From assembly GCA_048885865.1 (NCBI GenBank), contig JBHLLF010000005.1, positions 1-64,000 of the forward strand: DNA of 64,000 bases, given 5' to 3'. Source of the stretch: Candidatus Hermodarchaeota archaeon (GTDB lineage Archaea; Asgardarchaeota; Thorarchaeia; Thorarchaeales; Thorarchaeaceae). A program made the position numbers and the translations under genes. The notes beneath the pieces are model-generated. The model searched no databases. It saw only the letters and a list, made by a program, of their open reading frames with translations, and had not been told where the DNA came from. Below, piece by piece: positions 4,467-53,182 of this stretch; positions within the stretch are counted from its first letter, which is position 1, and every line of letters starts with the position of its first letter.

Positions 4467-4613
4467 AACAGTCATAGATTTGAGAGTGTTGAGTCGTTAT
4501 TCGGCGATTTCGAACGCCTTCAATTCCGAGTTCGTTCATAGCAGCTAATATATATGTACGATAGCGCGCATCCCTTGCTGACTCTTCGTCCATCATAATG
4601 GAGCTTGTTACCA

Positions 4614-12084: not shown

Positions 12085-12111
12085 ATGAACACGGGCTAGA
12101 GGCCGGCAGTC

Positions 12112-12951
12112 TTGATTATAACAGTTGCATCTGGAAAAGGTGGTACAGGCAAGACCACCGTCGCTGTGAACATGGCTTTGTCACTAGGAGATACAACTCT
12201 TCTTGATTGTGATGTAGAGGAACCCAACGTACACGCACTACTCCATCCTGAGAAAACGCACTCCGAACCTGTGATGGTACCAACCCCTCTTATTGACATG
12301 GACAGATGCACGCTCTGTGCAACATGTGCTGAGTTCTGCGAGTTTAACGCAATATTCGTTGGCAAGAGCGTACTTGTTTACCCAGAGATCTGTCATTCAT
12401 GTGGAGGCTGCTCCCTAGTCTGTCCTGAGGGTGCTATTGAGGAAAAGCCTCGTCAAGTTGGAAATCTATACAGAACGGGAGTAGATGGGATCCATCTTGC
12501 ATACGGAGAGCTCAATGTTGGAGAGCCTGTAGCAATCCCTGTTATCAAAGCAGTCAAGAAGATGATGGACCAAGAGGGAATCACGATTCTTGATGCCCCA
12601 CCAGGCACTGCCTGTCCAGTCATTGAAACGATGCAGGACAGTGACTTTGTTGTATTAGTGACTGAGCCCACACCCTTTGGACTTCATGATCTTTCAATGA
12701 CGGTTGATGTCATTAAGGAACTTGATATTCCCCATGGCGTTGTATTGAATCGTGTGGGGATTGGAAATGATGAGGTGAGAGAGTTCTGTAGAACAAAGGG
12801 TATTCCCGTCTTACTTGAGATTCCATTTGATAGAAAGATAGCTGAACTGTATTCCAAGGGAGTGCCCTTTGTCCAAGAGATGCCGGTCTGGAGAGAACGA
12901 TTCATACATCTGTTCGAGGTCATAAAGGAGATGTCAAGAAGTGGCAATTGA
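12112..12951 (+). CDS. MinD-superfamily P-loop ATPase with inserted 2x[4Fe-4S] ferredoxin
   Basis: SGKGGTGKTT, DCDVEEPN, two CxxCxxCxxxC motifs, DAPPGTACP, TEPTPFGLHD. Confidence 0.92.
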   Translation: MIITVASGKGGTGKTTVAVNMALSLGDTTLLDCDVEEPNVHALLHPEKTHSEPVMVPTPLIDMDRCTLCATCAEFCEFNAIFVGKSVLVYPEICHSCGGCSLVCPEGAIEEKPRQVGNLYRTGVDGIHLAYGELNVGEPVAIPVIKAVKKMMDQEGITILDAPPGTACPVIETMQDSDFVVLVTEPTPFGLHDLSMTVDVIKELDIPHGVVLNRVGIGNDEVREFCRTKGIPVLLEIPFDRKIAELYSKGVPFVQEMPVWRERFIHLFEVIKEMSRSGN

Positions 12952-15994: not shown

Positions 15995-16048
15995 CTGAAA
16001 CCATGAAGCCAGTGTCTTATTACTTAGCTGGGAACCATAGCTTTAAAT

Positions 16049-16080
16049 GTAAAGTTTACTTTACGTAAAATGAACTTTAC
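16049..16080. promoter_or_regulatory. Two abutting GTAAAR-N4-CTTTAC operators for the XRE regulator
   Basis: GTAAAG-TTTA-CTTTAC (16049-16064) then GTAAAA-TGAA-CTTTAC (16065-16080), just downstream of TTTAAA TATA. Confidence 0.75.
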
Positions 16081-16100
16081 ATCCAAATAAGGTGATCAGT

Positions 16101-16337
16101 ATGATTGTGAACAGGCTGCGGGAACTCCGAGAAGCCAAGATGGAAACGTCAGAGCAACCTGAGCTATGGACTCAGGAGGGAACGGCGAAGCGTCTCGGAG
16201 TCACGAGGCAGACAATCATATCTATGGAGAAGAGGACGTATAATCCCTCTCTTACACTTGCCTTCAAGCTGGCGCGTCTATTTGGATTGAAGATTGAAGA
16301 CATATTCGAGTTTACGAGTGATGAGAATGAATCGTAG
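16101..16337 (+). CDS. XRE-family HTH transcriptional regulator
   Basis: NRLRELR..TQE..AKRLGVTRQTIISMEK..YNPSL.LAFKLA..F...IEDIF. Confidence 0.92.
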   Translation: MIVNRLRELREAKMETSEQPELWTQEGTAKRLGVTRQTIISMEKRTYNPSLTLAFKLARLFGLKIEDIFEFTSDENES

Positions 16338-16689
16338 TGTATTGGCTGGTCTGGGTATTGTGGTTGTGGTAATCATAGTGTTCACCATCATGTGGATTCT
16401 GGACATAGCTTCTCTAGCTGGCATTATGGGAGCCATTGGCGGTATGGTCGGCGGAATCCTTGGTGCTTCTTATATGAAGAGGTTCCACGATGAGAGGTTC
16501 TCTCTAATCACGAAGAAGTCCGCGAGCAATGCCTATTGGTTTGTCATGATAGCTCTGCCTCTTAGTTGGATTGTGATGATACGAGCAGAAACAATCACAA
16601 TTTCACTGGCTTTAGGGCTGGCCCTCGCAATCTGGATGTTGTCTTTCGTCGTACTCTACATTTCACTGTTCTACTACTATAGGAAATAA
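16327..16689 (+). CDS. DUF2178-like membrane protein
   Basis: TM helices, DER...I..KSA motif, YYY end; overlaps the XRE stop. Confidence 0.7.
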   Translation: MNRSVLAGLGIVVVVIIVFTIMWILDIASLAGIMGAIGGMVGGILGASYMKRFHDERFSLITKKSASNAYWFVMIALPLSWIVMIRAETITISLALGLALAIWMLSFVVLYISLFYYYRK

Positions 16690-16745
16690 CTCGCCTCTTC
16701 AATCGATTTGATGAAGGAAGTGGAATGGAATAGGAACGGACAGAA

Positions 16746-18152
16746 TCAGGAAGGCAGATGCTCCATGCAGTTCAAGGCGCTTCCAACCTGAACTCTTACT
16801 AGTTTCTGGATAGGAATTACTTCGAAATTTGTCCCCTTCAGGGTCCTTTTCACTGTGGACTCGACGTACTCGTTCAATTCGCTCTTGATTTCTGACAGCA
16901 TCTTGCTTTGGTTTGGATGTATCAGCATGGCTTCATCACACAATCTAGCTGTCATTGCGGGTCTAAAAGCACCATAGTATCTAGAAGCAGTCTTGGAGTC
17001 AAAGGCTTGAGCTACTGTTGCCTTTCCCTCATACATCGAGTCAGTCTTGGCGTGATGCATTTGAGGGGCAATTCGTTTCTCAAAGTTATCAATTGCATCT
17101 GCCACAGAACTGAAGATCTTAGACTTGGGGTCACAGAGGTTTCTAAATCGATTAAACCTCTCCTTGGTATATTTGTGAACTTCTATGAAGAAATCATATG
17201 AGTCTAGAACCAGCTTGCGACGGTCCTCTTCGGTAGGGGAGTCATCATCTAAATCCCGGTCATAGAAATAGGGCATCTCACAGACGAGAGTGAAACCACG
17301 ATTGCTAGTCACTCTTTTGAGATAGTCGTCTGATGATGTGCCACACAGAATGAGTTCCTGTGGGTTTTCTACCCCGTTTGCTTCGTAGAAGTCATAGTTC
17401 TCCGATATGCCAAACATTTGATAGATGCCAGGATGAAACTCCTTTAGGTAGGGCGCTTCAGGCTCTCCTTGATGTAGGGGCAGTTTTTCACGTTTTACAA
17501 GATTCACAAGTCCTGAAAACATCTCCTCGATTCGATGGCTGATGTAGTAGTAGACTCCACAGAATCCTGCATTATGAAGGCTGAACATGAAATCAGGCTT
17601 GGTTTCATCAATGATACGCATCAAGGCCCGTGTTTCCGGTGGGGAGTCAGTGAATTTGAGTTTCTTGTATTCGATAGGGAATGTCCACTCCATCTGCTCA
17701 TGTGAAGCAGGCCTATAGTAGTGCTTTGCGTACTTAACGGGATCAAAATCGCCCTTGAACCAACCCTCGTTCAGTGCTGCTCCATCAGGGTCAATCACCT
17801 TGATCAAGTGCCAAGTGAATCCTGTCTTCTTAGTGAAATCGGGGTTTTCGGCCAGATACTTGGACAGAAACTCCACAGTCATGCTGCCGATTGGCTCATT
17901 GGGATGAGGAAATGCAAAGAGCAGCGCGTTTCGGTCACCCGTGCCTATCTTCAGACATGATATTGGTCTTCCCTCCCTAGACTCTCCTATTTTCTCGAGA
18001 GTGACCTCTGAGAAATCTTCTGCGAGTTTCTTACTTGAGTTATCGAGTTCTTCAACCGTCATGAACTCTCTATATGTCGGAACTGCATCTAGGACCTCAT
18101 CAAAATTCAACAGTCTATCCTCCGCTGGCTGATGCTCTGTATGCAGAGACAC
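16746..18152 (-). CDS. M14-family zinc carboxypeptidase
   Basis: GESREGRPI, HPNEPIG, DPDGA, FSLHN, VCEMPY. Confidence 0.87.
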   Translation of the reverse strand: MSLHTEHQPAEDRLLNFDEVLDAVPTYREFMTVEELDNSSKKLAEDFSEVTLEKIGESREGRPISCLKIGTGDRNALLFAFPHPNEPIGSMTVEFLSKYLAENPDFTKKTGFTWHLIKVIDPDGAALNEGWFKGDFDPVKYAKHYYRPASHEQMEWTFPIEYKKLKFTDSPPETRALMRIIDETKPDFMFSLHNAGFCGVYYYISHRIEEMFSGLVNLVKREKLPLHQGEPEAPYLKEFHPGIYQMFGISENYDFYEANGVENPQELILCGTSSDDYLKRVTSNRGFTLVCEMPYFYDRDLDDDSPTEEDRRKLVLDSYDFFIEVHKYTKERFNRFRNLCDPKSKIFSSVADAIDNFEKRIAPQMHHAKTDSMYEGKATVAQAFDSKTASRYYGAFRPAMTARLCDEAMLIHPNQSKMLSEIKSELNEYVESTVKRTLKGTNFEVIPIQKLVRVQVGSALNCMEHLPS

Positions 18153-18253
18153 GAACCCTCCTTATATTTGCGGAGTTTCATCTCGAATAAGCCACAAGGA
18201 GAGGACCGGAACCCTGAAACGGTTTCGGGATATAATCCACCTGAGAATATAGA

Positions 18254-18481
18254 TTGATTGTAGTCTATCTGATGGTGCTAGGTATCCTGATCGGGCTGGC
18301 TTTCTATAGCTACATCCGTTTCATCCGGGCATCAGATCGACCTAGTTACCAACCGACTGAAGTAAGTACCATGATTGGTGGTCGAGTGGAGCATATCACT
18401 ACAGGAGCCGTACCCAAGCTTATGCCCCGTCACTTGATGAGTGAGTCGGAACGGGATGAAGAGTGGCAGCTCGAGCAATGA
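18254..18481 (+). CDS. Small single-TM hypothetical protein
   Basis: 75 aa, N-terminal hydrophobic helix, TATA-like ATATAA upstream. Confidence 0.5.
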   Translation: MIVVYLMVLGILIGLAFYSYIRFIRASDRPSYQPTEVSTMIGGRVEHITTGAVPKLMPRHLMSESERDEEWQLEQ

Positions 18482-18492
18482 CTCCTAATCTG

Positions 18493-18513
18493 AGAAGTGG
18501 TAGCAGGTAGATG
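18493..18513 (-). repeat. Isolated copy of the tRNA-iMet 3'-end-like motif
   Basis: AGAAGTGGTAGCAGGTAGATG matches 27022-27042 at 20/21 positions. Confidence 0.7.
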
Positions 18514-18556
18514 CTCCATTGAGTTGGTATTTGAATCCTTCAGGGGTTTTTCAAGG

Positions 18557-18832
18557 CTAATCATCTGACCAATCCCCTGAGGATATGTCAGCCAAGGATT
18601 TTCTCTTCTGTCTACTCATGCGATACAGAATGACACTCATAAGCATCGGAGTCAACACCATCAGGACTATCAACAACAGAACTTCATCCTGCGTAAGTGA
18701 GTAATAAGGCGCTAGAATGGATTGTATCACTGCCGAGAGCATAAAGACAGCTACAAAGGCGCAGCATATGGAACATCCCCTATACATCACTCTAGCAGTC
18801 GCGTCCAAACCTTCTCCCGTTGCAGTGGCCAT
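18557..18832 (-). CDS. Small two-TM hypothetical protein
   Basis: 91 aa, two hydrophobic helices. Confidence 0.55.
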   Translation of the reverse strand: MATATGEGLDATARVMYRGCSICCAFVAVFMLSAVIQSILAPYYSLTQDEVLLLIVLMVLTPMLMSVILYRMSRQKRKSLADISSGDWSDD

Positions 18833-18928
18833 GTCAATCCCACAACACTAGATTCTACGCCTTTCAGATAGAAATTGTGGTTTCAAAGAAGATGGCTCTA
18901 ATCTTAATTCTAATATGACATGTAATCC

Positions 18929-19267
18929 ATGGTTGCCCAGATGGAGATTATGCAACTACCAAGAATGAAGATAACCGTAGTACGAAGGTACAGTCCAGAG
19001 GAAGTGTTTGGACATCCAATGACTCAGTCCTCGTCAGGCAAAGCGATACCAGCCTGCCGAATCTTGGAAGATGGACAGGAGTTCATTGCTGATAACAGCT
19101 TCACGATGCCTGAAGGTTTCTGCGGATGGGCCTGGAGGGACTTGACTGTCCGATTCACTAAATTCGACCTAGTCGATATGGATTGGCCTGGTCCAAATGT
19201 GACCTATGTGGCATGTGGGGATGGCGTGAGGCCAGTTATCTTTCGACTGGAGAAGCTTGATGATTGA
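18929..19267 (+). CDS. TIGR04076-family protein
   Basis: KITVV, C..LEDGQEF, PEGFCGWAW, ACGDGVRPVIFRLE. Confidence 0.85.
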   Translation: MVAQMEIMQLPRMKITVVRRYSPEEVFGHPMTQSSSGKAIPACRILEDGQEFIADNSFTMPEGFCGWAWRDLTVRFTKFDLVDMDWPGPNVTYVACGDGVRPVIFRLEKLDD

Positions 19268-19380
19268 TGTCGACTATGGAGGCAACTCACAGAAAACAAA
19301 CAGAGAAGAAGTCGTAGTGGATGAGTGACCGTTTCACTGGCTCTCTGAGTTCGAGTCTTGTACCAGTTCTTTGGTCCATA

Positions 19381-20322
19381 CTAACTGGATTTGTAGAGAT
19401 CCGTACTAAGGTACTTGACACCTGAATCAACCAGCAACGTGACAACTGTGGCACCAGGTCCCAGTCTCTTGGCTATTCTGATTGCTGCCGCTACATTTGC
19501 TCCTGATGAGGTACCTGCACAGAGCCCCTCTTCTCTTGCCAGCCGTCTTGCCATCTCCTTGGCCTCTTTGGTGGGAATGCGAACAATCTCATCGACTAGA
19601 CTACTATCCCATAGGGGTGGAAGAAATCCTATCCCAATGCCCTCTATATCATGTGAACCACTCTCCCCTCCCGACAACACCGGGGACTCGTCCGGTTCAA
19701 CAGCGACAATTCTCACCCGTGAGTTGCGTTCTCTCAACGTTCTGGAGGTACCAATAATAGAACCAGCAGTCCCAGCCACATGCACGAAGGCATCGACTAG
19801 GCCATTCGTCTGTTCCCATATCTCTTCACCCAATTGGAGATAGCCAGACACATTGTCCTTATTGTACAGTTGATTTGTCCAGTAAGTACCTGGTTCATCA
19901 CTCAGCTCTCGGGCGGCCTCTATCATCTTCTCGATTAGTTCTTTCCTGATCCCAAGACCCTCGCTTGGAATAATTGTGACTTCTGCACCAAGAGCCCTCA
20001 TGTGGTCTAGTTTCTCTTGACTAAACGCATCAGAGGAAACAACACGAAAACGATATCCTTTGATAGCACAGATAAATGCCAGCGATGTTCCTGTGCTCCC
20101 TCCAGTATATTCCACCACCGTGCTACCAGGACCTAATCTCCCGTCTTCCTCTGCTTTTTCAATCATGGCTTGAGCCATGCGATCTTTCATACTTCCCGTG
20201 GGATTCTCCCATTCTAGCTTGACTAGCACTCTACCATGGTCTTGAGGAACCACCTTTTTCAACTGCACTAAGGATGTATTCCCAATCGCATCCAAGGCAT
20301 CTTCGGCAATCTTCACGCTCAC
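19381..20322 (-). CDS. cysK: Cysteine synthase (PLP-dependent) family protein
   Basis: KLEWENPTGSMKDR, GTAGS, IEGIG, SSGAN, DSGVKYLST. Confidence 0.88.
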   Translation of the reverse strand: MSVKIAEDALDAIGNTSLVQLKKVVPQDHGRVLVKLEWENPTGSMKDRMAQAMIEKAEEDGRLGPGSTVVEYTGGSTGTSLAFICAIKGYRFRVVSSDAFSQEKLDHMRALGAEVTIIPSEGLGIRKELIEKMIEAARELSDEPGTYWTNQLYNKDNVSGYLQLGEEIWEQTNGLVDAFVHVAGTAGSIIGTSRTLRERNSRVRIVAVEPDESPVLSGGESGSHDIEGIGIGFLPPLWDSSLVDEIVRIPTKEAKEMARRLAREEGLCAGTSSGANVAAAIRIAKRLGPGATVVTLLVDSGVKYLSTDLYKSS

Positions 20323-20415
20323 ACTTCCTGCACCCCAATGAGCTACACGTCTATAACATATTCGCCTCAGAGCAAAGATTGCCTGGATTATAACGACACC
20401 AATTGTGGATGAATG

Positions 20416-20572
20416 AGCGGGTAGATGGCGGGCTTCGGAAATCTTATGTTGGATATCAGCGCATAGTTCTAGTTCAGAGTGTTGTCATATCTATGACACA
20501 GCCTCAAAATTCTCTGTTTGTCTAAGAGAATACAGCGACTTCTTACATTCCAACACCATTGGGAGGAGAATA
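20416..20572 (+). repeat. Conserved upstream element copy 1 (promoter plus structured leader)
   Basis: Homologous to 22512-22681, 24760-24930 and 27019-27190. Confidence 0.9.
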
Positions 20573-22477
20573 ATGGAAAGAAATCAAATGACTGCCATGG
20601 TAATGGTTGTAATCGTGATTATGGGAGTTGGACTAGGCTACGTTCTCATGACTCAGCCAACAAGGCCGCCGATTGACGAGTACATCTATGAAACAATAGG
20701 CAATCCCATCAGTATGGACCCACACGTCAATTACGAGAGTCTTGGTGTCTTCGTACAGGAACAAGTCTATGAAACACTATACTACTACCCATTTAGTGCG
20801 AATAGTACAATGCCCTCCATGCCTCTATTGGCATCTGCGGCTCCAGTCATTTCGGCAGATGGTCGACAATACAACATCTCCCTTCGTCAGAACGTCATCT
20901 TCCATGATGGTACACCATTCAATGCCAGTGTGGTCAGATGGAATGTCGAGAGGGCAGTAAAGACTTTCCGTCTCGCGGGTCAAGTCTGGATGATCATTAA
21001 GCCACTCAGAGGCGGCTTGGCAGTGGAGGAAGCTGCCTATGGTGAAGGGACTGATTCACAGGCGTTTACTGATGCATTTGACGACTGGGTCGCCAACTCC
21101 GGCGCAATCGTCGTTCTAGACACCTACACCATCCAGTTTAACCTTGAGGAAGCATTCGCTCCATTCATTGCAGCGATGACCTTCAGAGTAGGAGCTATGA
21201 TGAGTCCTACCTATGTCCTGTCCAACCCGTGTAACGACTCAGTTCCCGTTGGTGGCGACTGGAGAGAACACTATGGCAATGATTATGGCGAGTGGGAATC
21301 CACCTGGATGGAGAACCACACCTGTGGTACAGGTCCATATATGCTAGAAGAGTGGAAACCAAACGAGTATATCCACCTACGCCTGTTTGAGGACTACTGG
21401 AGAGCTGATGCCACGGAAGCAGCTATAAGACCACCAGCCTATGCGGGTTCAGTCAAGCACATCTGGTGCAGGAACAACGAAAACTGGACACTCAGGAAAG
21501 AGAATCTCGTGACTGGTGTTGTTGACGATACGTATTGGCCGACTACGTACTGGGAAGAGATCTATGACAAAGACACGCAGGGCAGCAAGGATCCAAACAT
21601 CTTTGTCAGAACCGGCGGTGTTTCATTCACAGTGATGGCACTCTCGTTCCAGATGGGAATAATGAACTGGTCTCTTACCAATGGGTCCAGCGTCGAGACT
21701 TACGCTCCGAGTCACTGGAGAGAGTTTCGGAACATGATGGCATATCTCCTAGACTATGATGCCTGCATCCAAGCGGTCTACGAAGGTTGGACTGTCAAGG
21801 CACAGGGCCCAATTCCGATTGAAATGCACTACCATAACGCAAGCTATTGGACCGAACATTATGACCTACAGATTGCAGTCGAGTACTGGAACGAGGCCAT
21901 GCAGGACCCAGGCTTTGTGGGCGTCATGAACACAATCGAGGGTGACATCAAGCTCTACTACAACGAAGGCAGCGCCACACGAGAGCCGGTCTTTCTGCTT
22001 GTGAAGGAGTGCTTCGAAGACATGAAACAGCTGCCTCAAATGAACACAACAGGACTGGACTACGAACCAAAGTTCACGCCCATCGGACTCCCCTGGTCCC
22101 CCAGTCTCATGACAGGGAGCGACCCTGAGCTGTCGATGTGGGTCACAGGCTGGATACCGGACTACTCAGACCCTGACAACATTTTGACACCATTCTTGCA
22201 CTCTGAAGGTGTGTTTGCGCAGATGTTTGGCTACAGCAACAGTGTGATGGATGACTTGATTGTGCAAGGCAGGGCCGAGACCGACCCAGTTGCTAGGCAG
22301 CAGATCTACAACCAGATCCAGAAACTGGCCGCCTATGACCGTCCATCGTTGTGGCTGTACTCGCCATCGGAGTTTACAGTATTCAGGGCATGGCTGAAGG
22401 GAACTGGGTTGAGATACCAACCAGCGTCCTCGTATTACTACATCTACCACGTGTACAAGGACTACGAGAACTACTAG
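20573..22477 (+). CDS. ABC transporter family-5 substrate-binding protein, paralogue 1 (N-anchor only)
   Basis: DPH..YETL, LRQNVIFHDGTPFNAS, CGTGPYML, GWIPDYSDPD, R.QIYNQIQ. Confidence 0.9.
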   Translation: MERNQMTAMVMVVIVIMGVGLGYVLMTQPTRPPIDEYIYETIGNPISMDPHVNYESLGVFVQEQVYETLYYYPFSANSTMPSMPLLASAAPVISADGRQYNISLRQNVIFHDGTPFNASVVRWNVERAVKTFRLAGQVWMIIKPLRGGLAVEEAAYGEGTDSQAFTDAFDDWVANSGAIVVLDTYTIQFNLEEAFAPFIAAMTFRVGAMMSPTYVLSNPCNDSVPVGGDWREHYGNDYGEWESTWMENHTCGTGPYMLEEWKPNEYIHLRLFEDYWRADATEAAIRPPAYAGSVKHIWCRNNENWTLRKENLVTGVVDDTYWPTTYWEEIYDKDTQGSKDPNIFVRTGGVSFTVMALSFQMGIMNWSLTNGSSVETYAPSHWREFRNMMAYLLDYDACIQAVYEGWTVKAQGPIPIEMHYHNASYWTEHYDLQIAVEYWNEAMQDPGFVGVMNTIEGDIKLYYNEGSATREPVFLLVKECFEDMKQLPQMNTTGLDYEPKFTPIGLPWSPSLMTGSDPELSMWVTGWIPDYSDPDNILTPFLHSEGVFAQMFGYSNSVMDDLIVQGRAETDPVARQQIYNQIQKLAAYDRPSLWLYSPSEFTVFRAWLKGTGLRYQPASSYYYIYHVYKDYENY

Positions 22478-22511
22478 TGCCTCCTGGAGTTCTGCAGTAT
22501 ACCATATATGC

Positions 22512-22681
22512 AGAAGAAGTGGTGGCGGATAGATGGCGGGCTTCGGAAATCTTATGTTGGAACCCAGCGCATAGTTCTAGTTCATAGTGTTGTCATATCT
22601 ATGATGCAGCCTCAAAGTTCTCTGTTTGTCTGAGAGAATGCAGCGACTTCTTTCATTCTAGCACTAGTAGGAGGAGAGTGA
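22512..22681 (+). repeat. Conserved upstream element copy 2
   Basis: See copy 1. Confidence 0.9.
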
Positions 22682-24724
22682 TTGCGAAGAGAGCAATTGA
22701 CCGCCATCATATTGATTGCAGTCATGGCTGTGGGAGCTGGCGCCGTCATTGCCTTTGCCACTCAGTCTACTAGACCACCAGTTGATTCGTTTGTGTATGA
22801 ATATCCTCCTGGTCCTTACCTTTTGGACCCGCATATCTATTGGGGGAGTGAACAAATCGAACAGGTCTATGAAACGCTGTATACGTACCCATGGGGAAGC
22901 GGGGAACGTGGAGGTCATCCTGAGAGCACTCCAACCATACCCCTCTTGGCTGCAGGTGCTCCAGTCATCACAGAGAATGGAACCGTGTACACCATACCAC
23001 TTAGGCAAGGCATAACCTTCCATGATGGAACTCCTTTCAATGCCAGTGCAGCTGTCTGGAACTTCAAGAGAGCCATGAAGATGTTCGCCTACGGTTCCGT
23101 AGGAGCAATTGCCGATGCTATCAAGGGCGGCATGCAAGTGAGGGATGCCGCCTCGACATACGGCACGGCCTCAGATGAGTTCAAGGCCGCATTCGATGTC
23201 TGGGAGGTCACGGACGCAGTAGAGGCTACCAACACTTACGAGGTCACCTACAGACTGGAACAACCAGCTGCCCACTTCATACCAGCGATGACCAACGGGT
23301 TGGGTCGCATGATGAGTCCTACATTCGCCGAGAAGCATGCATCCACTCCTGGAGCCTCATTCGGAGTTGACTACGGCGAGGAACTCACCTACATGTACAA
23401 CCACACCTGTGGGACCGGCCCCTACCAGGTCGTTGAGATGAAGCAGCATGAGTACGTCCACATGACCCTTAATGAGGACTACTGGAGAGCTGACGCGACT
23501 GAGGCCGCAATCGCGCCTCCGTCTTACGCTGGCTCCATAAAGGAAATCTGGAGCAAGGTCAACGCCGACTTGATAAACAAGAAAGAGAACCTTCTGAATG
23601 GATTCGTTGATGCCTTCTTCTGGCCGCCAGGATGGCATACGGACGAGATCTACGACAGCGTCACATTGGGTAGCAAGGACCCTAACATATTCTTCAGGAC
23701 CGGTGGTGTGCGGTATCACGTGGTAGGAATATCATTCGAGATGGGATTGGTGAACTGGACTGGATCACCGGACTTCGAGGCCTACTCCCCATTCCACTGG
23801 AGAGCACTCAGGAACATGCTGGCATGGTTTCTCGACTACGATGCCATTATCCAAGCGCGTTACGGTGACTTGGCGGTCCGAGCAGAAGGTCCAATCCCGG
23901 TTGGTACGCCCTACCAGAACAGTAGCTATTGGACTAAACAGTCCGATCCAGAAACTGCAGTTGAGTATTGGAACGAGGCTATGCAAGACCCTGATTTCAT
24001 AGACACAATGAATACAATTGGGTGCGAGATCCCGTTCGCCCTAAGTCATTGGAACGATACAACAACACATCTGGTTTCTCTACAGCTGAAGGAAGGGTTC
24101 GATGCCATGAAACAGATGCCCCAAATGAACATGACAGGATTGAACCATGAACCCGAGATTAGCCTGTATCCTCCATCCCATCCGTGGTTCCCGTCTTCTT
24201 TCCCGATAGATAGAGAGCTGATACATACATGGAGCAGTAGAGCTCACTACGCCGATACTGACGCCTTTGTATTTCCATGTCTACACTCTTCTGTGGCTCG
24301 ATGGTACGGCTACAACAACAGCGTGATGGACGACCTGATCATGCAAGGCAGGGCCGAGACCGACCCAGTTGCAAGACAGCAGATCTACAACCAGATCCAG
24401 GAACTGGCCGCCAACGACCGGCCATTCCTGTGGCTGTGCTGGCCTAGAGAGTTCACCACGTTCAGAGCTTGGCTGAAGGGTATTGGCTTGAGATTCCAGC
24501 CATGGACGTGGCATTACATCTACCATGTGTACAAGGAATATACGACGACCACAACATATACGACGACAACGGGCGCGACAACTTTCACATCGCCAGAGCT
24601 TTCCGACATTGGCTCACTAGTGCCTATCTACTTTCTAGCAGGACTCGGATGGGCAGTGGTTGTTGTTCTTCTCATTGCATTTCATAGATGGAAACCTAGA
24701 GCACAAAGTACAGTAAACTATTAG
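22682..24724 (+). CDS. Family-5 substrate-binding protein, paralogue 2 (Thr linker plus C-terminal TM)
   Basis: Same SBP motifs; TTTT linker and hydrophobic C-terminal helix; TTG start after AGGAGG. Confidence 0.9.
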   Translation: MRREQLTAIILIAVMAVGAGAVIAFATQSTRPPVDSFVYEYPPGPYLLDPHIYWGSEQIEQVYETLYTYPWGSGERGGHPESTPTIPLLAAGAPVITENGTVYTIPLRQGITFHDGTPFNASAAVWNFKRAMKMFAYGSVGAIADAIKGGMQVRDAASTYGTASDEFKAAFDVWEVTDAVEATNTYEVTYRLEQPAAHFIPAMTNGLGRMMSPTFAEKHASTPGASFGVDYGEELTYMYNHTCGTGPYQVVEMKQHEYVHMTLNEDYWRADATEAAIAPPSYAGSIKEIWSKVNADLINKKENLLNGFVDAFFWPPGWHTDEIYDSVTLGSKDPNIFFRTGGVRYHVVGISFEMGLVNWTGSPDFEAYSPFHWRALRNMLAWFLDYDAIIQARYGDLAVRAEGPIPVGTPYQNSSYWTKQSDPETAVEYWNEAMQDPDFIDTMNTIGCEIPFALSHWNDTTTHLVSLQLKEGFDAMKQMPQMNMTGLNHEPEISLYPPSHPWFPSSFPIDRELIHTWSSRAHYADTDAFVFPCLHSSVARWYGYNNSVMDDLIMQGRAETDPVARQQIYNQIQELAANDRPFLWLCWPREFTTFRAWLKGIGLRFQPWTWHYIYHVYKEYTTTTTYTTTTGATTFTSPELSDIGSLVPIYFLAGLGWAVVVVLLIAFHRWKPRAQSTVNY

Positions 24725-24759
24725 GCAGCCATCCAGTGTAGAAGGACTATGGATTCTAG

Positions 24760-24930
24760 AAAGAAGTAGTTGCAGATAGACGGCGGGCTTCGCAAATCTT
24801 ATGTCGAAACCCAGCACATAGTTCTAGATCACAGTGTTGTCATATCCATGACACAGCCTCAAAGTTCTCTCTTTTTGTCTGAGAGAATGCAGCGACCTCT
24901 CACGTTCCAACACTAGTAGGAGGAGAACAC
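24760..24930 (+). repeat. Conserved upstream element copy 3
   Basis: See copy 1. Confidence 0.9.
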
Positions 24931-26964
24931 TTGGGAAGAGACCAGCTGACCGCAATCGTATTGATCGTAGTTATGATTGTGGGAGCTGGTAGTGTCCTTG
25001 TCTTAGCCACTCAGCCTACTAGACCACCAATTGACTCGTATGTATATGAGATGGAACCATATAATGGGTACTTTATCGTGTCTATCGATCCTCACTATCA
25101 TTATGGCGACGATGGAAGTATTGCAGTGATTGAACAGGTCTACGAAACCTTGTATACCTATCCATGGGGAAGCGGCGAACGTGGGGGCCATCCTGAAAGC
25201 ACTCCAACCATACCACTCTTGGCTGCGGGTCCGCCGACGATATCTGAGAATGGTACTGTCTACACTATAGAACTGAGGCAAGGCGTCACCTTCCATGATG
25301 GGACTCCATTTAATGCCAGCGCAGCAGTGTGGAACTTCAAGAGAGCCATGAAGATGGGTCTGCGTTATGCCGAACTGATCAAGGGTGGGACGGAAATGAA
25401 GGATGTTGCCCGGGCATATGGCTCGACTTCAGATGAGTTCAAGGATGTGTTTGAAGCCTGGGAAGCCACAGACGCAGTAGAGGCTAGCGGTACATATGAA
25501 ATCACCTACAGACTGGAAGAAGCGGTCGCATTCTTCATTCCAGTAATGACCGATCCAACTTTCTGCATGATGAGCCCTACCTTCGCCGAGAAACATGCAG
25601 TGAATCATAGCGATTCATTCGGAGTAGAATACGGCGAGATATTCACCTACATGTGCAACCACACTTGTGGGACTGGCCCCTACAAGGTGGTTGAGTTGAA
25701 GAGAAGTGAGCACGTCCGCATGACACTCAACCAGAACTACTGGAGAGCTGAAGCGACTGAGGCTACGATTGCACCTCCACTCTATGCTGGCTCGATAAGG
25801 GAGATTTGGTTCAAGGCTAACGAAGACCAGACAAGCATGAACCTGAACCTCAAGAATGGAGTCGCTGACGACACTTACTGGCCGTCATCGTATGCGGACG
25901 AGATCTATGACAGCGTTACACTTGGTAGCAAAGACCCTAACATCTTCTTCAGAACCGGTGGTGTGTCCTCTTACATGAGTGGATTCCGGTTCCAGATGGG
26001 AATAATGAACTGGACTATCGGGTCGGACACCTTTGAGATTTACTCCCCATTCCACTGGAGAGGGCTCAGGAAGGCCATGGCGTATCTCCTCGACTACGAT
26101 GCCTATATCCAATCGGTAACCAGTGGCTGGAACGTCAAGGCACAAGGACCGATTCCGGCTTGGATGCCTTACCATAACTCGAGTCATTGGACTGAGCATT
26201 ATGAACCAGAGATTGCAGTCGGGTATTGGAATGACGCCATGCAAGATCCCGATTTCGTGGCTGTCATGAACGCAATCAGGGGCAAGATCATACTCCCCTA
26301 CCATGTCTTCCAAAACCCCCTAGAACTGATCTCGTTGCTGCTGAAGGACGGTTTCGATGCCATGAAACTACTGCCTGAGATGAACACCACGGGATTGGAC
26401 TACGAGCCAATGATCACGCCTGCGCCCTCCTATATCGGCCTTCCTCGTGAAGAGCCGCTGCTACTGTCAAATCAATGGATTGCTAGGTACGCTGACCCTC
26501 ACGACCTCGTATTCTTCTACCTACACTCCAGAGGTTATTCTTCACAGTTGCAGGGTTACAACAACAGCGTGATGGACAACCTAATCATGCAAGGCAGGGC
26601 CGAAACTGACCCAGTCGTCAGACAGGACATCTATAACCAGATTCAGGAACTAGCTGCCTACGACCAACCATTCTTGGGGCTGTACTCGCCCAAGGAGTTC
26701 ACCACGTTCAGAGCTTGGCTGAAGGGCATTGGTCTGAGATACCAGCCATTATGCTCGTATTATTACATCTACCACGTGTACAAGGATTATACGACAACGG
26801 ACACGACGACCACACCCGGAGATCAGATTACAACTGGCACTCCACTCCCCACATCGCCAGAGCTTCCCGACATCGGCTCACTAGTGCCTATCTACTTTCT
26901 AGCAGGACTCGGATGGGCAGTGGTTGTTGTTCTTCTCATTGCATTTCATAGATGGGAATCTTGA
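24931..26964 (+). CDS. Family-5 substrate-binding protein, paralogue 3
   Basis: Same SBP motifs; C-terminal anchor nearly identical to paralogue 2. Confidence 0.9.
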   Translation: MGRDQLTAIVLIVVMIVGAGSVLVLATQPTRPPIDSYVYEMEPYNGYFIVSIDPHYHYGDDGSIAVIEQVYETLYTYPWGSGERGGHPESTPTIPLLAAGPPTISENGTVYTIELRQGVTFHDGTPFNASAAVWNFKRAMKMGLRYAELIKGGTEMKDVARAYGSTSDEFKDVFEAWEATDAVEASGTYEITYRLEEAVAFFIPVMTDPTFCMMSPTFAEKHAVNHSDSFGVEYGEIFTYMCNHTCGTGPYKVVELKRSEHVRMTLNQNYWRAEATEATIAPPLYAGSIREIWFKANEDQTSMNLNLKNGVADDTYWPSSYADEIYDSVTLGSKDPNIFFRTGGVSSYMSGFRFQMGIMNWTIGSDTFEIYSPFHWRGLRKAMAYLLDYDAYIQSVTSGWNVKAQGPIPAWMPYHNSSHWTEHYEPEIAVGYWNDAMQDPDFVAVMNAIRGKIILPYHVFQNPLELISLLLKDGFDAMKLLPEMNTTGLDYEPMITPAPSYIGLPREEPLLLSNQWIARYADPHDLVFFYLHSRGYSSQLQGYNNSVMDNLIMQGRAETDPVVRQDIYNQIQELAAYDQPFLGLYSPKEFTTFRAWLKGIGLRYQPLCSYYYIYHVYKDYTTTDTTTTPGDQITTGTPLPTSPELPDIGSLVPIYFLAGLGWAVVVVLLIAFHRWES

Positions 26965-27018
26965 GCACAAAGTGCGGGGTTCATTGCGAGAGCAATCTGA
27001 AATGCTGGAGAGGGTTTG

Positions 27019-27190
27019 AGAAGAAGTGGTAGCGGGTAGATGGCGGGCTTCGGAAATCTTATGTTGGAAATCAGGGCATAGTTCTAGTTCAGAGTGTTGT
27101 CATATCTATGACACAGCTTCAATGCTCTCTCTGTTCGTCTGAGAGGGTGCAGCGACTTCTTACATTCCAACACTAGTAGGAGGAGAACAC
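27019..27190 (+). repeat. Conserved upstream element copy 4
   Basis: See copy 1. Confidence 0.9.
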
Positions 27191-29284
27191 TTGAGAAGAG
27201 ACCAGCTGACCGCCATCATATTGATCGGAGTCATGATTGTGGGAGCTGGCGGTGTCCTTGTCTTCGCCACTCAGCCCACTAGACCACCAGTTGATGCATA
27301 CGTGTATGATATAGGAGAAGGTCCCAACACCTTGGACCCGTACACTACTTTTTGGGGTAGCATGATCGAACAGGTCTATGAAACGCTGTATACGTACCCA
27401 TGGGGAAGCGGGGAACATGGAGACCATCCCGAAATCACTCCAAGCATACCCCTCTTGGCTGCAGGCGCTCCAGTCATAACAGAGAACGGCACCGTGTACA
27501 CCATACCCCTCAGGCAAGGCATCAATTTCCATGATGGTACTCCGTTCAATGCCAGTGCAGCTGTCTGGAATTTAAAGAGAGCCATGAAGATGTTCCACAT
27601 TTCGAGTCTCATTGTCGATGTTATCAAGGGTGGTATGCAAGTGAAGGATGCTGCCTCGACATACGGCACGACCTCAGATGAGTTCAAGGCCGCATTCGAT
27701 GCCTGGGATGCCACAGACGCAGTAGAGGCTACTGACACCTACGAGGTCACCTACAGACTGGAACAACCGGCAGCTCACTTCATTCCAGCGATGACCAACA
27801 CGTTCGGTTGCATGATAAGTCCCACATTCGCCGAGAAGCATGCAACGAGTCCCGGAGTCTCATTCGGAGTCGACTACGGCGAGGAAATCACCTACATGTA
27901 TAACCACACTTGCGGAACCGGCCCCTACCAAGTTGTCGAGTGGAAGACAGGCGAGTATGTCCACATGACCCTGAATGAGGACTACTGGAGAGCCGACGCG
28001 ACTGAGGCCGCAATCGCACCGCCATCCTACGCCGGCTCGATAAAGGATATCTGGTGCAGGATAGACGAAGACTGGACAATCACGAGCCTGTGCAATGACT
28101 TTCGGAATGGAGTCGTTGATGCCCTCAACTGGCCATGGTCGCAGAAGGATGAGATCTACGACAGCGTCACAATGAGTAGCAAGGACCCGAACATCTTCAT
28201 CAGGACCGATGGTGTGGACTCTTTCATCGAGGGAATAAGGTTCGAGATGGGATTGTTGAACTGGACCGGCCACTCGGAGGACTACGAGGCTTACTCCCCA
28301 TTCCACTGGAGAGCACTCAGGAACATGGTGGCGTATCTTCTCGACTACGATGCCATTGTCCAAGGGGCATACGGTTTCTGGGCGTTACGAGCAGAAGGGC
28401 CAATTCCGATTGGAATGTGCTACCATAACGCGAGCTATTGGACTGAACACTATGATCCAGAGATTGCAGTCGAATACTGGAACGAGGCCATGCAGGATCC
28501 CGAATTTATAGACACTATGAACACGATCGGATGCCAAATCCCGCTCGCCTGCAGCTATTCGAACAGTACGCTAGATCTGGTCTATCTACAGTTGAGGGAC
28601 GGCTTCGAGGCCATGAAACAACTGCCCCAAATGAACACCACAGGCTTGGATTGCGAACCAAAGATCCGCTTCTGGACCCCATGGCTCTATATCTATAGGT
28701 ACTACGATGTTCCGATAGGAAACAGAGGGCTGATAGGGCATTCCTGGTGTGTATCGAGCTATGCCGACCCTGACGGCTTTCTATTATCGTGCCTATACTC
28801 CAGATGCATTCAGGCTCAGCAGGTCGGTTACAACAACAGCGTGATGGACGACCTGATCATGCAAGGCAGGGCTGAAACTGACCCTGTTGCGAGACAAGAC
28901 ATCTACAATCAGATCCAGGAACTGGCTGCCTACGATAGTCCATACCTGTGGCTGTACTCGTTCAAGGAGTTCAGCACATTCGGAGCGTGGCTGAAGGGCA
29001 TAGGCATGAGATACCAGCCTATGTCACGTTACTATTACATCTACCACGTGTACAAGGATTATACCGGGTGTTGGTGGGATTATACGACGACAACGGACAC
29101 GACAACAACGGACACAACAACCACAACGGGCCCAACAGGTGATCAGGAGCCACAGCCCCTGGGGCTGTATCCACTTGTTCTAGGAGGTTCAGGTGTCGTT
29201 ATAGCAGTGGCTGCGGTCTACATTATCTATCGTAAAAGATCGGATATTGCAGCTGCTACCGAAGCAGTCCTCTGGGGAACTTAA
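27191..29284 (+). CDS. Family-5 substrate-binding protein, paralogue 4
   Basis: Same SBP motifs; Thr linker and a different C-terminal TM. Confidence 0.9.
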   Translation: MRRDQLTAIILIGVMIVGAGGVLVFATQPTRPPVDAYVYDIGEGPNTLDPYTTFWGSMIEQVYETLYTYPWGSGEHGDHPEITPSIPLLAAGAPVITENGTVYTIPLRQGINFHDGTPFNASAAVWNLKRAMKMFHISSLIVDVIKGGMQVKDAASTYGTTSDEFKAAFDAWDATDAVEATDTYEVTYRLEQPAAHFIPAMTNTFGCMISPTFAEKHATSPGVSFGVDYGEEITYMYNHTCGTGPYQVVEWKTGEYVHMTLNEDYWRADATEAAIAPPSYAGSIKDIWCRIDEDWTITSLCNDFRNGVVDALNWPWSQKDEIYDSVTMSSKDPNIFIRTDGVDSFIEGIRFEMGLLNWTGHSEDYEAYSPFHWRALRNMVAYLLDYDAIVQGAYGFWALRAEGPIPIGMCYHNASYWTEHYDPEIAVEYWNEAMQDPEFIDTMNTIGCQIPLACSYSNSTLDLVYLQLRDGFEAMKQLPQMNTTGLDCEPKIRFWTPWLYIYRYYDVPIGNRGLIGHSWCVSSYADPDGFLLSCLYSRCIQAQQVGYNNSVMDDLIMQGRAETDPVARQDIYNQIQELAAYDSPYLWLYSFKEFSTFGAWLKGIGMRYQPMSRYYYIYHVYKDYTGCWWDYTTTTDTTTTDTTTTTGPTGDQEPQPLGLYPLVLGGSGVVIAVAAVYIIYRKRSDIAAATEAVLWGT

Positions 29285-29398
29285 TGATCTGCCACAGCAT
29301 CAGCATAAGTATCCGTTGTATCGACCCGTTCAAAACAATCACTTCTTGGTCATCCTATGAAAACCCTTAATACCCTCATCGCGGCAAATGCAGCTTGC

Positions 29399-29477
29399 AG
29401 CGGGTTGGGGAAGCCAGGCCAATCCCGCAGGGCTCATAACCCTGAGATCGGAAGTTCAAATCTTCCACCCGCTACCA
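29399..29477 (+). tRNA. tRNA-iMet (CAT), initiator type, CCA encoded
   Basis: AGCGGGT/ACCCGCT acceptor with A1:U72; CAGGG-CTCATAA-CCCTG with three G-C pairs; GGAAG-TTCAAAT-CTTCC T arm; upstream AAACCCTTAATA promoter. Confidence 0.96.
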
Positions 29478-29898
29478 TTTCTTTCTCCAATATTGCAAGA
29501 AAATGAATTCCTGGCTTCCACGATGAAGGCATCAATTATACTCATGGGAGGAAGCCAGGTCCGGCTGTTTCTCAAAATGGCTCCGGCGGTGGAGTAAATG
29601 GTTTCAAACCCCTGGGTTCTTGAGGAGGAGCAAATAGTTTGTTACTAACTAGTTCTTTTTGCCGTAGTATCATTGCGATCAAAATGAGATGCGGTTTTCT
29701 TGGCAGAATCCCATTCAGCAGTTCATTGCATTTTGAACCCGCTCTACAGTTCAGTTCTTAGCAAAATGACGCCTTTGAGAGTGAGGGTTCTTATAGGGAC
29801 TTAATAAGTCCCAGGTGTCAATTTCTCAAGAAACTCAATGAAGATATAGCCAGTAGTGCGCACGGAGTTCTGACCAGGAAAATCTGGAAGGGTTACAA

Positions 29899-30162
29899 AT
29901 GCAAGTGTTCGTAGAAGTTTCATTGTTGACTGCAATCTATGCAGTCTGGATCTTGCTTCTGGTCAACGCCATGGTGTCCAGTGAAGAGGTATCCCTTACC
30001 ATCGCCACACTTCCATTCATAGTCACTTTCCCAATCGCACTACTTCTTGCCGCGTCAGCTGAAGTCTTCATGCCGGGTGTCCTTGGAGTTGACATCCTTC
30101 TCACTGTAATCATGGGAGTCCTTCTGTTTGTGAGATGGGTGATGGCAATCGTTGGTGAGTAA
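29899..30162 (+). CDS. Small multi-TM hypothetical protein
   Basis: 87 aa, almost entirely hydrophobic, GGAAGGG upstream. Confidence 0.65.
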   Translation: MQVFVEVSLLTAIYAVWILLLVNAMVSSEEVSLTIATLPFIVTFPIALLLAASAEVFMPGVLGVDILLTVIMGVLLFVRWVMAIVGE

Positions 30163-30215
30163 CCTACAGAACTCACTAAAGATGGGAAAATGAACAATAA
30201 TCAAGAACTCGAAGG

Positions 30216-30380
30216 CTACTTCTGACCCTTACGCTTGAACTCTGTGTATCCACAGCGGCCACATGCGAAGCGATCAAAATGTTCAGCCATATAGGTCCCC
30301 TTCTCACATCGAGGGCAGGTTCTCTTGTTGGGTGTGACCTTTCCAGTCTTCGAGTCTACCTTGTACATTTTGTGCGCCAT
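30216..30380 (-). CDS. rps27ae: 30S ribosomal protein S27ae (eS31); missing from ORF track
   Basis: Manual translation [54 protein letters not shown]. Confidence 0.95.
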
Positions 30381-30689
30381 CTAGGACTCCTCTCCTGCCT
30401 TCTTTGCCCCATGCCTCTTTACGATGTGATTAAGCTCGACCCTCTTCATCTGCTCGGGATCAGAGTATATCCTTGCAGACCCCTCTGTCATTCCAGCACC
30501 AAACTTGGTGTCAAGACTTCGGATGACCACTGTGTCTGCATCTGCATCAAACTGAGCCACTATCTTGGCCTTTACGTCAGCCCTACTAGGAGTGGTTTCA
30601 CCGATATGTTCCACTCTGAAGTCTATCTCTTTCCTAGCGAGAGGTCTGTTTTCTTTCTCTTGAAGAATCTCAATCTTCATTTGCATCAC
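30381..30689 (-). CDS. rps24e: 30S ribosomal protein S24e
   Basis: ENRPLARKEI, TPSRADVK, TKFG...G.ARIY. Confidence 0.95.
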   Translation of the reverse strand: MMQMKIEILQEKENRPLARKEIDFRVEHIGETTPSRADVKAKIVAQFDADADTVVIRSLDTKFGAGMTEGSARIYSDPEQMKRVELNHIVKRHGAKKAGEES

Positions 30690-30782
30690 TCTTTACATCT
30701 GGACTGACCTCTGAGGTGAGTCAGCCATTCGACCTTGGGTTGTCTAATAAAGCTTTCACCACAGACAATCTGAAATCACTGT

Positions 30783-30995
30783 CTAGCGAACTTTCAGAGC
30801 GTATTTGCCAGGTCTGTCAATGTTAAGCCGTTCAGCTATGTAGGAACTATTTCGTGGGTCTTCGTTCTTATTTCGCCCTGGGAGAATCACCACAATTCCA
30901 GTGTATGAAGTAGACAGACTAGTGCTTTTACAGTTGGGACACTGGTCCTCATTTGTCAGAAAATGGCAGGACCTACAGGCTCTTTGCTTTGCCAT
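30783..30995 (-). CDS. spt4: Transcription elongation factor Spt4 (RpoE'')
   Basis: ACRSC..CPNC..Y.G.VVI..S.IA..L.I..PGKYALKVR. Confidence 0.95.
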   Translation of the reverse strand: MAKQRACRSCHFLTNEDQCPNCKSTSLSTSYTGIVVILPGRNKNEDPRNSSYIAERLNIDRPGKYALKVR

Positions 30996-31008
30996 GGAAT
31001 CTCCTCAG

Positions 31009-31623
31009 CTACTTCTTCTTGTCCTTCTTTGACTTCTCCCCACGGGCACTTCTGACATCATCCTCTACCCATGAGTTCTGTGGGCCAATCTTGCCCAGGA
31101 AAGGTTGCCGCATGGTGAGACCCAGCTTTCCAGATCTGTTACCAGACTCGAAGCTGATTGAAGTGATACGAGCTCTGACACTATCTCCCTCAGCAAGGGT
31201 CCTTCCGGTTTCCTTACCCAGCAATGCACTGCCCTTAGAGTCTTGAGTAATGAAATCATCACATATCTGGCTCACGTGACAGAGACCGTCTAGAGGCCCC
31301 ATTCTGATGAATGCCCCAAAGTCCATCAGCTCGACTACATTCCCTTCCACAAGTTCCCCTCTTATCGGTTTGAACACTAGAACCTGGTAGGTGACTGAAT
31401 GATAGGTAGCACCGTCGCCTGGCATGAGTCGTCCCTGGCCAATGTCATCGATACCAATGACCGCGATCATGAGTCCGACATCTCTGTCTAGGACATTCTC
31501 ATGCTGCTTGCGTAAATGGACCATTGCAGCATCTTCTATCTGAGAACCAAACTCCTTTGGAGGAATTCGGACGACATCTCTTACTGTGACAACGCTGTAT
31601 ATCTTAATCACCGACCTGGACAA
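31009..31623 (-). CDS. rpoE1: DNA-directed RNA polymerase subunit E' (Rpo7)
   Basis: VRIPP..FG, GDGATY, FGAFIRMGPLDGLCHVSQI, GLTMRQPFLG; start uncertain. Confidence 0.95.
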   Translation of the reverse strand: MSRSVIKIYSVVTVRDVVRIPPKEFGSQIEDAAMVHLRKQHENVLDRDVGLMIAVIGIDDIGQGRLMPGDGATYHSVTYQVLVFKPIRGELVEGNVVELMDFGAFIRMGPLDGLCHVSQICDDFITQDSKGSALLGKETGRTLAEGDSVRARITSISFESGNRSGKLGLTMRQPFLGKIGPQNSWVEDDVRSARGEKSKKDKKK

Positions 31624-31720
31624 TCATAGAATAATCAGACTATCGCCTAGATGCATTAGTCTGGACCCAACGGCTCAGCGGTGCAACCATTTGGTAAACA
31701 TAAAAAGATTGTGAATAGGT

Positions 31721-32134
31721 CTATGATACATCTCCTTCGAGAGCAAGCCGCTTCCTGCCTCTGAGAAGCAACACAGGAAGCCCCTTCACTCGCGCACGGG
31801 CCCGCAGGTCCTTGTCATTTGTTGCCAACACGCCGCCAGCCTGGGATGTGTATTCTATAAGCTGGTCATCAACGGTCATTTCTGAAAGCGTGTCTTGAAC
31901 GTCTACTTTCCTGCAATTCTCAGCCAGTTCCAAAGCTATTCGAAAGGCTCGTTTATCACTACCCTTCGCTGTTTTCGCAAGTTTGTTGATTTCTTCCAAA
32001 ACAGAATCAAGGATCACGAATTCCACTCGTTGTTCCAGAATCGTTTCAGCCTCAGAGAAGACATCCACGCTAAACTGGGGGGGCACGGTGAGGAAGTTGG
32101 TATCAACCACGACAAGAATGACCACTTTGTTCAC
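31721..32134 (-). CDS. PIN-domain protein (Fcf1/Utp24-like)
   Basis: VDTNFL, VLEEI, VDDQLI, LATNDKDLR; conserved position after eif2g. Confidence 0.88.
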   Translation of the reverse strand: MNKVVILVVVDTNFLTVPPQFSVDVFSEAETILEQRVEFVILDSVLEEINKLAKTAKGSDKRAFRIALELAENCRKVDVQDTLSEMTVDDQLIEYTSQAGGVLATNDKDLRARARVKGLPVLLLRGRKRLALEGDVS

Positions 32135-53123: not shown

Positions 53124-53182
53124 CTTTCAATTCTACGCGAGCTGTCGAGTATACAATAAGCAAGATGGAACGGTCCCAGAAC

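Follow-up and report, generated by a model that had tools for sequence, protein, structure and literature searches.

Why is an initiator tRNA gene preceded by a row of inverted copies of its own 3' end, several of them at the edge of a gene-sized piece of DNA? This question is raised by a locus in a stretch of 64,000 nt (the window, that is, the whole stretch of DNA analysed), which belongs to contig JBHLLF010000005.1 of the Candidatus Hermodarchaeota archaeon assembly GCA_048885865.1 (G000; 3.58 Mb, 87% complete). G-numbers denote the relatives' genomes compared and L-numbers the relatives' loci; L123 is metagenome contig CAJHYO010000124.1. A single tRNA gene lies in the window, at 29399-29477 on the plus strand with anticodon CAT, and ARAGORN and Rfam agree on it. 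It is assigned to the archaeal initiator type (tRNA-iMet) on two features: its end pair is A1:U72, and its anticodon stem contains three G:C pairs. CCA is encoded within the gene, which is the sole tRNA-Met gene called by ARAGORN in the assembly. On its 5' side are four tandem plus-strand SBP_bac_5 genes (PF00496, E 1e-38 to 1e-47). Farther upstream are a minus-strand gene for a pyridoxal phosphate (PLP)-dependent enzyme (the PALP gene), three small open reading frames (ORFs) and a minus-strand M14 carboxypeptidase gene. We consider it probable that the motif copies are displaced initiator-tRNA tails, left as scars of repeated recombination at the tRNA 3' end, that they form the seams between cassettes, and that the array is older than an inversion of the tRNA module.

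The inverted copies of the tRNA-iMet 3' end, which an earlier note on this DNA had described, are real. The search pattern TCYACCYGCTACCAYTTCT, with up to 3 mismatches, matched five times in the window against 0.05 expected from shuffles. Four matches are on the minus strand (18493, 22515, 24762 and 27022), and the remaining one is the tRNA end on the plus strand (29464). A scan by edit distance with the 24-nt consensus GAAGAAGTGGTAGCGGGTAGATGG found six copies, all in the same orientation (18488-18513, 19300-19325, 20403-20428, 22511-22536, 24758-24783 and 27018-27043), and recovered the tRNA end on the opposite strand at edit distance 5. Shuffled windows held 0-2 sites at edit distance 6 or less. 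Two minus-strand sites at edit distance 6 (26289-26314 and 53109-53134) were taken as chance, and a candidate degenerate copy at the junction between the left flank and the M14 gene (about 16703-16728) was set aside because its edit distance of 8 is at the noise level. The six copies are as follows.

18491-18513, plus strand: DR1, free-standing copy, reverse complement of the tRNA-iMet 3' end and trailer, edit distance 3
19303-19325, plus strand: DR2, degenerate copy, edit distance 6
20416-20428, plus strand: DR3, inner half only, beside the upstream region of the PALP gene, edit distance 4 (outer half missing)
22512-22536, plus strand: DR4, precedes binding-protein unit 2, edit distance 2
24760-24783, plus strand: DR5, precedes unit 3, edit distance 6
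27020-27043, plus strand: DR6, precedes unit 4, exact match to the consensus, edit distance 0

DR2, which had been proposed as very degenerate, is a copy too; its orthologs in G062, G063 and G066 are better preserved.

The motif, about 25 nt long, resembles the tRNA in a few T-stem bases, the 3' strand of the acceptor, the discriminator base and CCA, and the resemblance runs on through about 9 nt of trailer. Since it includes the trailer, the copies derive from the tRNA gene and not from the mature tRNA. They have sharp ends on both sides, and continued homology to the tRNA in the leader (T-arm, anticodon loop) was not significant (p 0.08-0.52). The inner part of the copies (GGATG or AGATG) matches the T-stem of the G055 tRNA, not the GGAAG of their own genome, as would be expected of imported or older tails. 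The motif is specific to this locus. In a search of the whole assembly, matches with 0-2 mismatches were confined to it, and 3-mismatch matches elsewhere (6 forward and 8 reverse in all) were near the number given by a reversed-pattern control (4 and 5). A generic terminator or a genome-wide intergenic motif, which the earlier note had named as what would undo its idea, was therefore rejected. An attC-like or terminator-like hairpin was rejected as well, because the copies fold no better than shuffled controls: no hairpin was found in them on either strand, with DNA folding energies of -0.5 to -4.9 kcal/mol and z-scores of -0.68 to +0.54. The DR1 copy has lost 7 nt in G062; thus, the copies behave as decaying scars and not as conserved elements.

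Comparison with relatives supports the proposal of a cassette array built by recombination at a tRNA-derived site, because the content of the locus does change at the copies. In G062, of the same genus, a 3.3-kb cassette consisting of a diverged motif, a promoter and a 1054-amino-acid (aa) ORF is inserted at window 19294/19301, with motif copies on both sides. G062 shares the third binding-protein gene (94%) from motif to motif (window 24763-27044, with DR5 at the left end and DR6 at the right end), and after the shared sequence ending in GGGTAGAT a cassette other than unit 4 follows. G063 lacks window 19300-29348 altogether; in its place are a truncated copy and some 480 nt that lead to the tRNA. 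At 20391, where the window has the truncated DR3, a full copy and another cassette are found in G066 and G065. G060 and G061 differ by a 1.1-kb indel with a copy on each side, and synteny with G062, G063 and G065 breaks at window 19291-19311. Breakpoints against five relatives thus coincide with copies (19291-19311, 20391, 24763, 27044 and the G060/G061 indel). Copies also stand alone or before unrelated genes (18493, 19303, position 11654 in G062, and the G060/G061 gene), and they precede cassettes with ORFs of about 1050 aa in G062, G066 and G065. Because the synteny breaks fall on the copies, the copies are read as cassette junctions.

The other pieces of the array block are listed below.

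16746-18152, minus strand: M14 carboxypeptidase gene (Pfam), outer end of the array block
18514-19302: DR1-DR2 cassette with two small ORFs, 18557-18832 (minus strand) and 18929-19267 (plus strand)
19381-20322, minus strand: PLP-dependent enzyme (PALP) gene (Pfam), between DR2 and DR3

The ORFs of the DR1-DR2 cassette gave no Pfam match over threshold; this cassette is common to G062 and G066 and is partly found in G063. The PALP product is 85% identical in amino acids to that of the gene directly and divergently 5' of tRNA-iMet in G043, which belongs to another genus (L106 9487-10422), and this identity is comparable to that of the aIF2-gamma gene (83%). The PALP gene is missing from this locus in G063, G055 and L123. 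Lying between tail copies here and absent in relatives, this conserved gene therefore behaves like a cassette.

The orientation of the tRNA also differs among relatives, and three arrangements were observed (L and R stand for the conserved flanks on the left and right, and T for the tRNA). Arrangement A (G055, G065) is L, T(+), array with direct copies, M14(+), R. Arrangement B (the window, G063) is L, M14(-), array with inverted copies, T(+), R; in G059 the copies beside L are oriented as in B. Arrangement C is that of L123, about 81% identical to the window: L, M14(-), two copies, a region with a 75-aa ORF, T(-), R. L123 was found in JGI metagenome contigs by a looser motif pattern; the exact 22-mer motif had no match in these contigs. 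The tRNA tail and trailer of L123 align to window 18511-18242, that is, to the free copy at 18493. Copies are direct relative to the tRNA in L123 and in the other genera covered, and inverted relative to the tRNA of the window. Compared with the window, G055 and G065 have the M14 gene reversed and on the opposite side of the tRNA. Besides extra cassettes, B differs from C only in the inversion of the following module.

29353-29483, plus strand: module of about 132 bp with the tRNA promoter CCTATGAAAACCCTTAATACC, the initiator tRNA (29399-29477) and 6 nt of trailer; both orientations are known

The module is 97.8% identical to that of G063, with unrelated DNA on either side. It occurs in both orientations against fixed flanks (window, G063 and G055 versus L123), and this is a difference between organisms, not within one population. 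The local inversion of the tRNA that the earlier note had suggested fits, since L123 has the tRNA on the other strand. Arrangement C reads as a whole-block inversion of A; alternatively, it can be derived from a B-like ancestor with T(-) by deletion between the 18493 copy and the tRNA tail. In the window's genus, a tail copy occupies the position of the tRNA promoter relative to the PALP gene, a placement that would fit flipping of the tRNA.

Misassembly is an unlikely cause of these arrangements, because C would take two false joins, both at repeats no longer than 27 nt, and because the order in the window is confirmed by a second, independent assembly. This assembly, GCA_048937605.1, is 99.92% identical over 15,994 nt, has the same order and tRNA orientation, and is the only near-identical one retrieved by exact-protein look-ups. 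Its contig JBHLMZ010000069.1 stops exactly at the tRNA CCA (window 29477). The tRNA is also where contigs of G066 and G060 stop, at its edge or within it, and the G064 contig starts about 100 nt upstream. Variable DNA at the tRNA site would produce assembly breaks of this kind. G063 (L052 12125-17484) and G066 (L053 13073-18431) carry a 5.3-kb insert that starts exactly 6 nt after the tRNA CCA and encodes ORFs of 675 aa (no Pfam match) and 873 aa (beta-propeller/FG-GAP repeats); the window has only about 80-170 nt in its place. Just 3' of the tRNA, at window 29510-29559, is an inverted repeat, CCTGGCTTCC...GGAAGCCAGG, whose stem is 10 bp long. Its arm sequence (29510, 29550) equals a 10-mer of the tRNA D-arm, and a 12-mer occurs at 19180; these were dismissed, being at chance level in a 64-kb window.

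The four binding-protein units share one architecture, in which the motif is followed by a leader of about 145 nt and an SBP_bac_5 gene.

20429-20572, 22541-22681 and 24788-24930, plus strand: leaders of units 1-3, equivalent to that of unit 4
20573-22477, plus strand: SBP_bac_5 unit 1, 634 aa, most divergent of the four (PF00496, E 1e-47)
22682-24724, plus strand: SBP_bac_5 unit 2, 680 aa (Pfam)
24931-26964, plus strand: SBP_bac_5 unit 3, 677 aa (Pfam; G062 ortholog 94% identical in DNA)
27048-27190, plus strand: promoter and 5' leader of unit 4, directly after the motif
27191-29284, plus strand: SBP_bac_5 unit 4, 697 aa (Pfam)

Unit comparison confirmed that the similarity between units starts at the motif. 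The leaders are 85-90% identical among the units, and the coding sequence of unit 1 is only about 45-65% identical to the others (DNA). Without the motif, the leader precedes many other SBP_bac_5-family genes; a first search found it in 22 of the 86 family genomes, in four genera, and it occurs at three further places in G000 (C1:103424-103548, C1:105399-105532 and C26:30863-30946). We aligned 29 distinct loci from G000 and 19 other genomes of four genera. The leader is conserved almost base for base over these loci, with a box GGAAACCTTATGTCGAAG like a B recognition element (BRE) and TATA element, an invariant palindrome TGTCATATCTATGACA, a hairpin CTCTCTCAG...CTGAGAGA and a Shine-Dalgarno sequence. 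Each unit of the window has its own conserved BRE/TATA-like box and leader directly behind the motif. No Rfam family matched the leader (window 16000-32000). It looks like a shared operator and structured 5' untranslated region for peptide-uptake genes. The motif lies just outside this promoter/leader module, and it is the motif, not the leader, that is specific to the locus.

Arrays of tRNA-iMet 3' fragments are found in many genomes of the family. The fragments are about 22-60 nt long plus trailer and are spaced by 0.6-4 kb, with at least 12 copies in 27 kb in G023, 6 copies in 6 kb in G083 and at least 9 copies in G022. In contigs that include the tRNA (G011, G043, G048, G081, G083, G023), the copies are direct repeats downstream of the tRNA 3' end. 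The cassettes sampled encode a TPR protein, a deaminase, a HerA-like ATPase and a beta-propeller protein. No recombinase was among them, and no integrase was found inside the arrays examined (G023, G022 and G083). No paper on such arrays in Thorarchaeota was found, which is weak evidence of their absence from the literature.

Other features adjoin or interrupt tRNA-iMet in the relatives. A three-gene module (a HerA-like ATPase of about 910 aa and proteins of 720-830 aa and 210-270 aa) adjoins the gene in five genomes, which represent four genera. Three of them have it on the promoter side; in G050 it is on the side of the tRNA tail, with a tail copy as its boundary, and in G044 it comes after a tail copy on a contig without the tRNA. 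Its opposite orientations relative to the tRNA in different genera would fit flipping. Relatives' tRNA-iMet genes can also carry one to three insertions (D-loop, anticodon loop, T-loop); the gene of the window has none.

HerA-like module: L093 256-5763, L104 19-2960, L089 9-4562, L096 5705-11708, L042 1-4745
Insertion-bearing tRNA-iMet: L096 (G050) 12016-12179, L089 (G023) 4598-4739, L093 (G083) 5856-5966, L056 (G064) 100-210

The displaced tails of G023 include a few intron bases adjoining the 3' exon. In G050, a second copy of tRNA-iMet (L096 14170-14290) consists of the 5' three-quarters only and is cut in the T-loop; about 2 kb, with a 581-aa ORF, separate it from the complete gene downstream. 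This suggests that replacement on the 5' side also occurs.

How might such an array have formed? We infer the order of events and the recombination chemistry from a motif that is tRNA-derived and unique to the locus, from content that shifts at the seams and from a relative with the other tRNA orientation. Cassettes would have come in at the tRNA tail at a time when the tRNA, at the right end of the array, still lay on the minus strand. Each arriving piece would have brought a new tail and displaced the old tail together with earlier cassettes, so that the oldest would lie farthest from the tRNA. Later recombination between tails could then have deleted, duplicated or swapped cassettes, and the four binding-protein units may be such cassettes, each with a tail, its own promoter and leader, and a gene. 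The promoter and tRNA module of about 132 bp would have been inverted afterwards, leaving the tails upstream and inverted. As for the chemistry, a recombinase might be supplied in trans, possibly on a mobile element; one-tail circles might integrate by Campbell-type (single-crossover) homologous recombination; or the process might be driven by a nuclease.

Several observations weigh against this reading. No match to PF00589 (tyrosine recombinase), PF00239 (serine recombinase) or PF01867 (Cas1) was found in G000 (87% complete), and PF07282 (TnpB) gave sub-threshold matches only. PF00589 is wholly absent from the G000 matches, with no XerA-like one either, and G022 likewise has none; no match to a resolvase/invertase or tyrosine recombinase was found in the genome. 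No virus or plasmid with the motif site was found, and three longer tRNA-tail patterns gave no match; four pattern matches in viruses and plasmids were discarded, since they look like chance and lie in unrelated sequence. The flipped module is bordered by hexamer-scale repeats only (CTTCTT/AAGAAG), and at least two inversions are needed to go from arrangement A (G055/G065) to that of the window. Copies left of the PALP gene need additional rearrangements, and no tail copy was detected at the far end of the 5.3-kb insert of G063 and G066. Finally, the four units share the motif-leader junction, which is also compatible with plain tandem duplication of one unit. In such a duplication, a gene and its upstream region would be amplified by unequal homologous crossing-over, the seams would reflect homologous recombination between repeats, the motif would be no more than the start of the amplified upstream region, and the likeness to the tRNA would have no mechanistic meaning. 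The similar leaders of the four units, the strong conservation of the leader as a functional module in many genomes and the failure to find a recombinase in the genome all suit this explanation. However, copies with sharp ends on both sides also occur alone or before unrelated genes, tail-type repeats bound unrelated cassettes family-wide, and the 18493 copy is the tRNA's own end in L123. We therefore regard ordinary tandem duplication as unlikely.

Two other explanations were weighed. In the first, the tRNA would never have flipped, and the array would have grown where it is, on the 5' side, by way of a secondary site in inverted orientation upstream of the tRNA. In G017 and G018, of another genus, a single inverted tail copy does lie 135-165 nt upstream of the tRNA, and the turnover of cassettes is ongoing among genomes with the window's arrangement. 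This explanation is nevertheless very unlikely, as L123 has its tRNA on the opposite strand and the tail of that tRNA is contiguous with the array, and as no copy in the window lies directly upstream of the tRNA promoter, the nearest being 2.3 kb away. Selection for a functional cis-element (an upstream activator, a signal for 3'-end formation or processing, or an antisense RNA that ends in a tRNA-like CCA) seems the most improbable. Spacing and position speak for it: the motif lies at a constant distance of 32-34 nt from a TATA-like CTTATGT box in three unrelated cassettes and is often closely behind the stop codon of a co-oriented gene. Yet the motif is less conserved than the leader (5 of 21 positions are changed in the 24760 copy), the free copy of G062 is shortened, the G063 copy is truncated and DR3 lacks its outer half. 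Structure does not exceed shuffled controls, the motif is nowhere else in the genome, and leaders in other genomes work without it. The antisense-transcript end that the earlier note had offered as its alternative is not supported for the same reasons of decay and lack of folding. A further idea is that the promoter and tRNA module may be a small invertible unit, whose flipping would let a capture system that is integrase-independent or uses a novel enzyme stack cassettes on both sides of the tRNA. We find this rather doubtful. If it were true, Thorarchaeota would have an integron-like platform of their own that works in both directions and uses a new kind of recombination machinery.

With recombination at displaced tRNA tails as the preferred explanation, this locus is of interest in three respects. 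Gene-sized cassettes would be exchanged at leftover tRNA tails without a recognisable integrase, a nutrient-uptake gene family would have expanded inside such an array, and the only tRNA-Met gene called by ARAGORN could be turned around within it. If one dedicated mechanism is responsible, a new system of gene capture would be at work. If general homologous recombination is enough, a flexible genomic island could be organised by nothing more than short conserved gene ends.

The known systems nearest to this locus, tRNA-targeted integrative elements and integrons, resemble it in part. Tycheposons of Prochlorococcus are tRNA-targeted integrative elements with tandem accretion (bioRxiv 10.1101/2020.12.28.424599). 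As in tycheposons and in islands at tRNA or tmRNA genes, partial tRNA 3' ends flank the putative inserts, later arrivals would push earlier ones outward, and degenerate partial tRNAs are scattered in a variable island beside the tRNA gene. Unlike in tycheposons, no tyrosine recombinase was found in the array or the genome, most cassettes consist of one gene with an apparent promoter of its own, and the array is inverted and on the 5' side of the tRNA, presumably because the tRNA module itself flipped. Integrons, a group with archaeal members (PMC9668308), and integrase-less attC clusters share with this locus a row of small, swappable, mostly one-gene cassettes, a short recurrent site between cassettes, and an order and content that vary among close relatives. 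They differ in that no IntI is present here (no PF00589 match genome-wide), the site is linear and tRNA-derived instead of an attC hairpin, and the cassettes appear to carry their own promoters without reliance on a common Pc. Thus, membership among tRNA-integrating elements fails on the integrase, and membership among integrons fails on the integrase and on attC structure.

Site-specific invertible segments are known from the Hin/Gin/Cin and Fim-type switches. Like these, the tRNA module is a short promoter-bearing segment in both orientations against fixed flanks; unlike these, it has only hexamer-scale border repeats and no adjacent invertase, and its two orientations were observed in different organisms, not in one population. 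Aloposons (PMC8813620) were considered and set aside, as large transposon-like elements with giant genes are not comparable with this array. Also close are the direct tRNA-iMet arrays of the family (G023, G083, G022, G011, G043 and G048), which have the same repeat of tRNA 3' end and trailer and, in the arrays examined (G023, G022 and G083), likewise no integrase. Compared with these, the repeats of the window are inverted and upstream, its relatives show three arrangements, one with a flipped tRNA, and among its cassettes is a transporter-protein family that has been amplified and is joined to a conserved leader. In summary, this locus contributes two things: a flipped initiator-tRNA module and an array on the 5' side of the tRNA.

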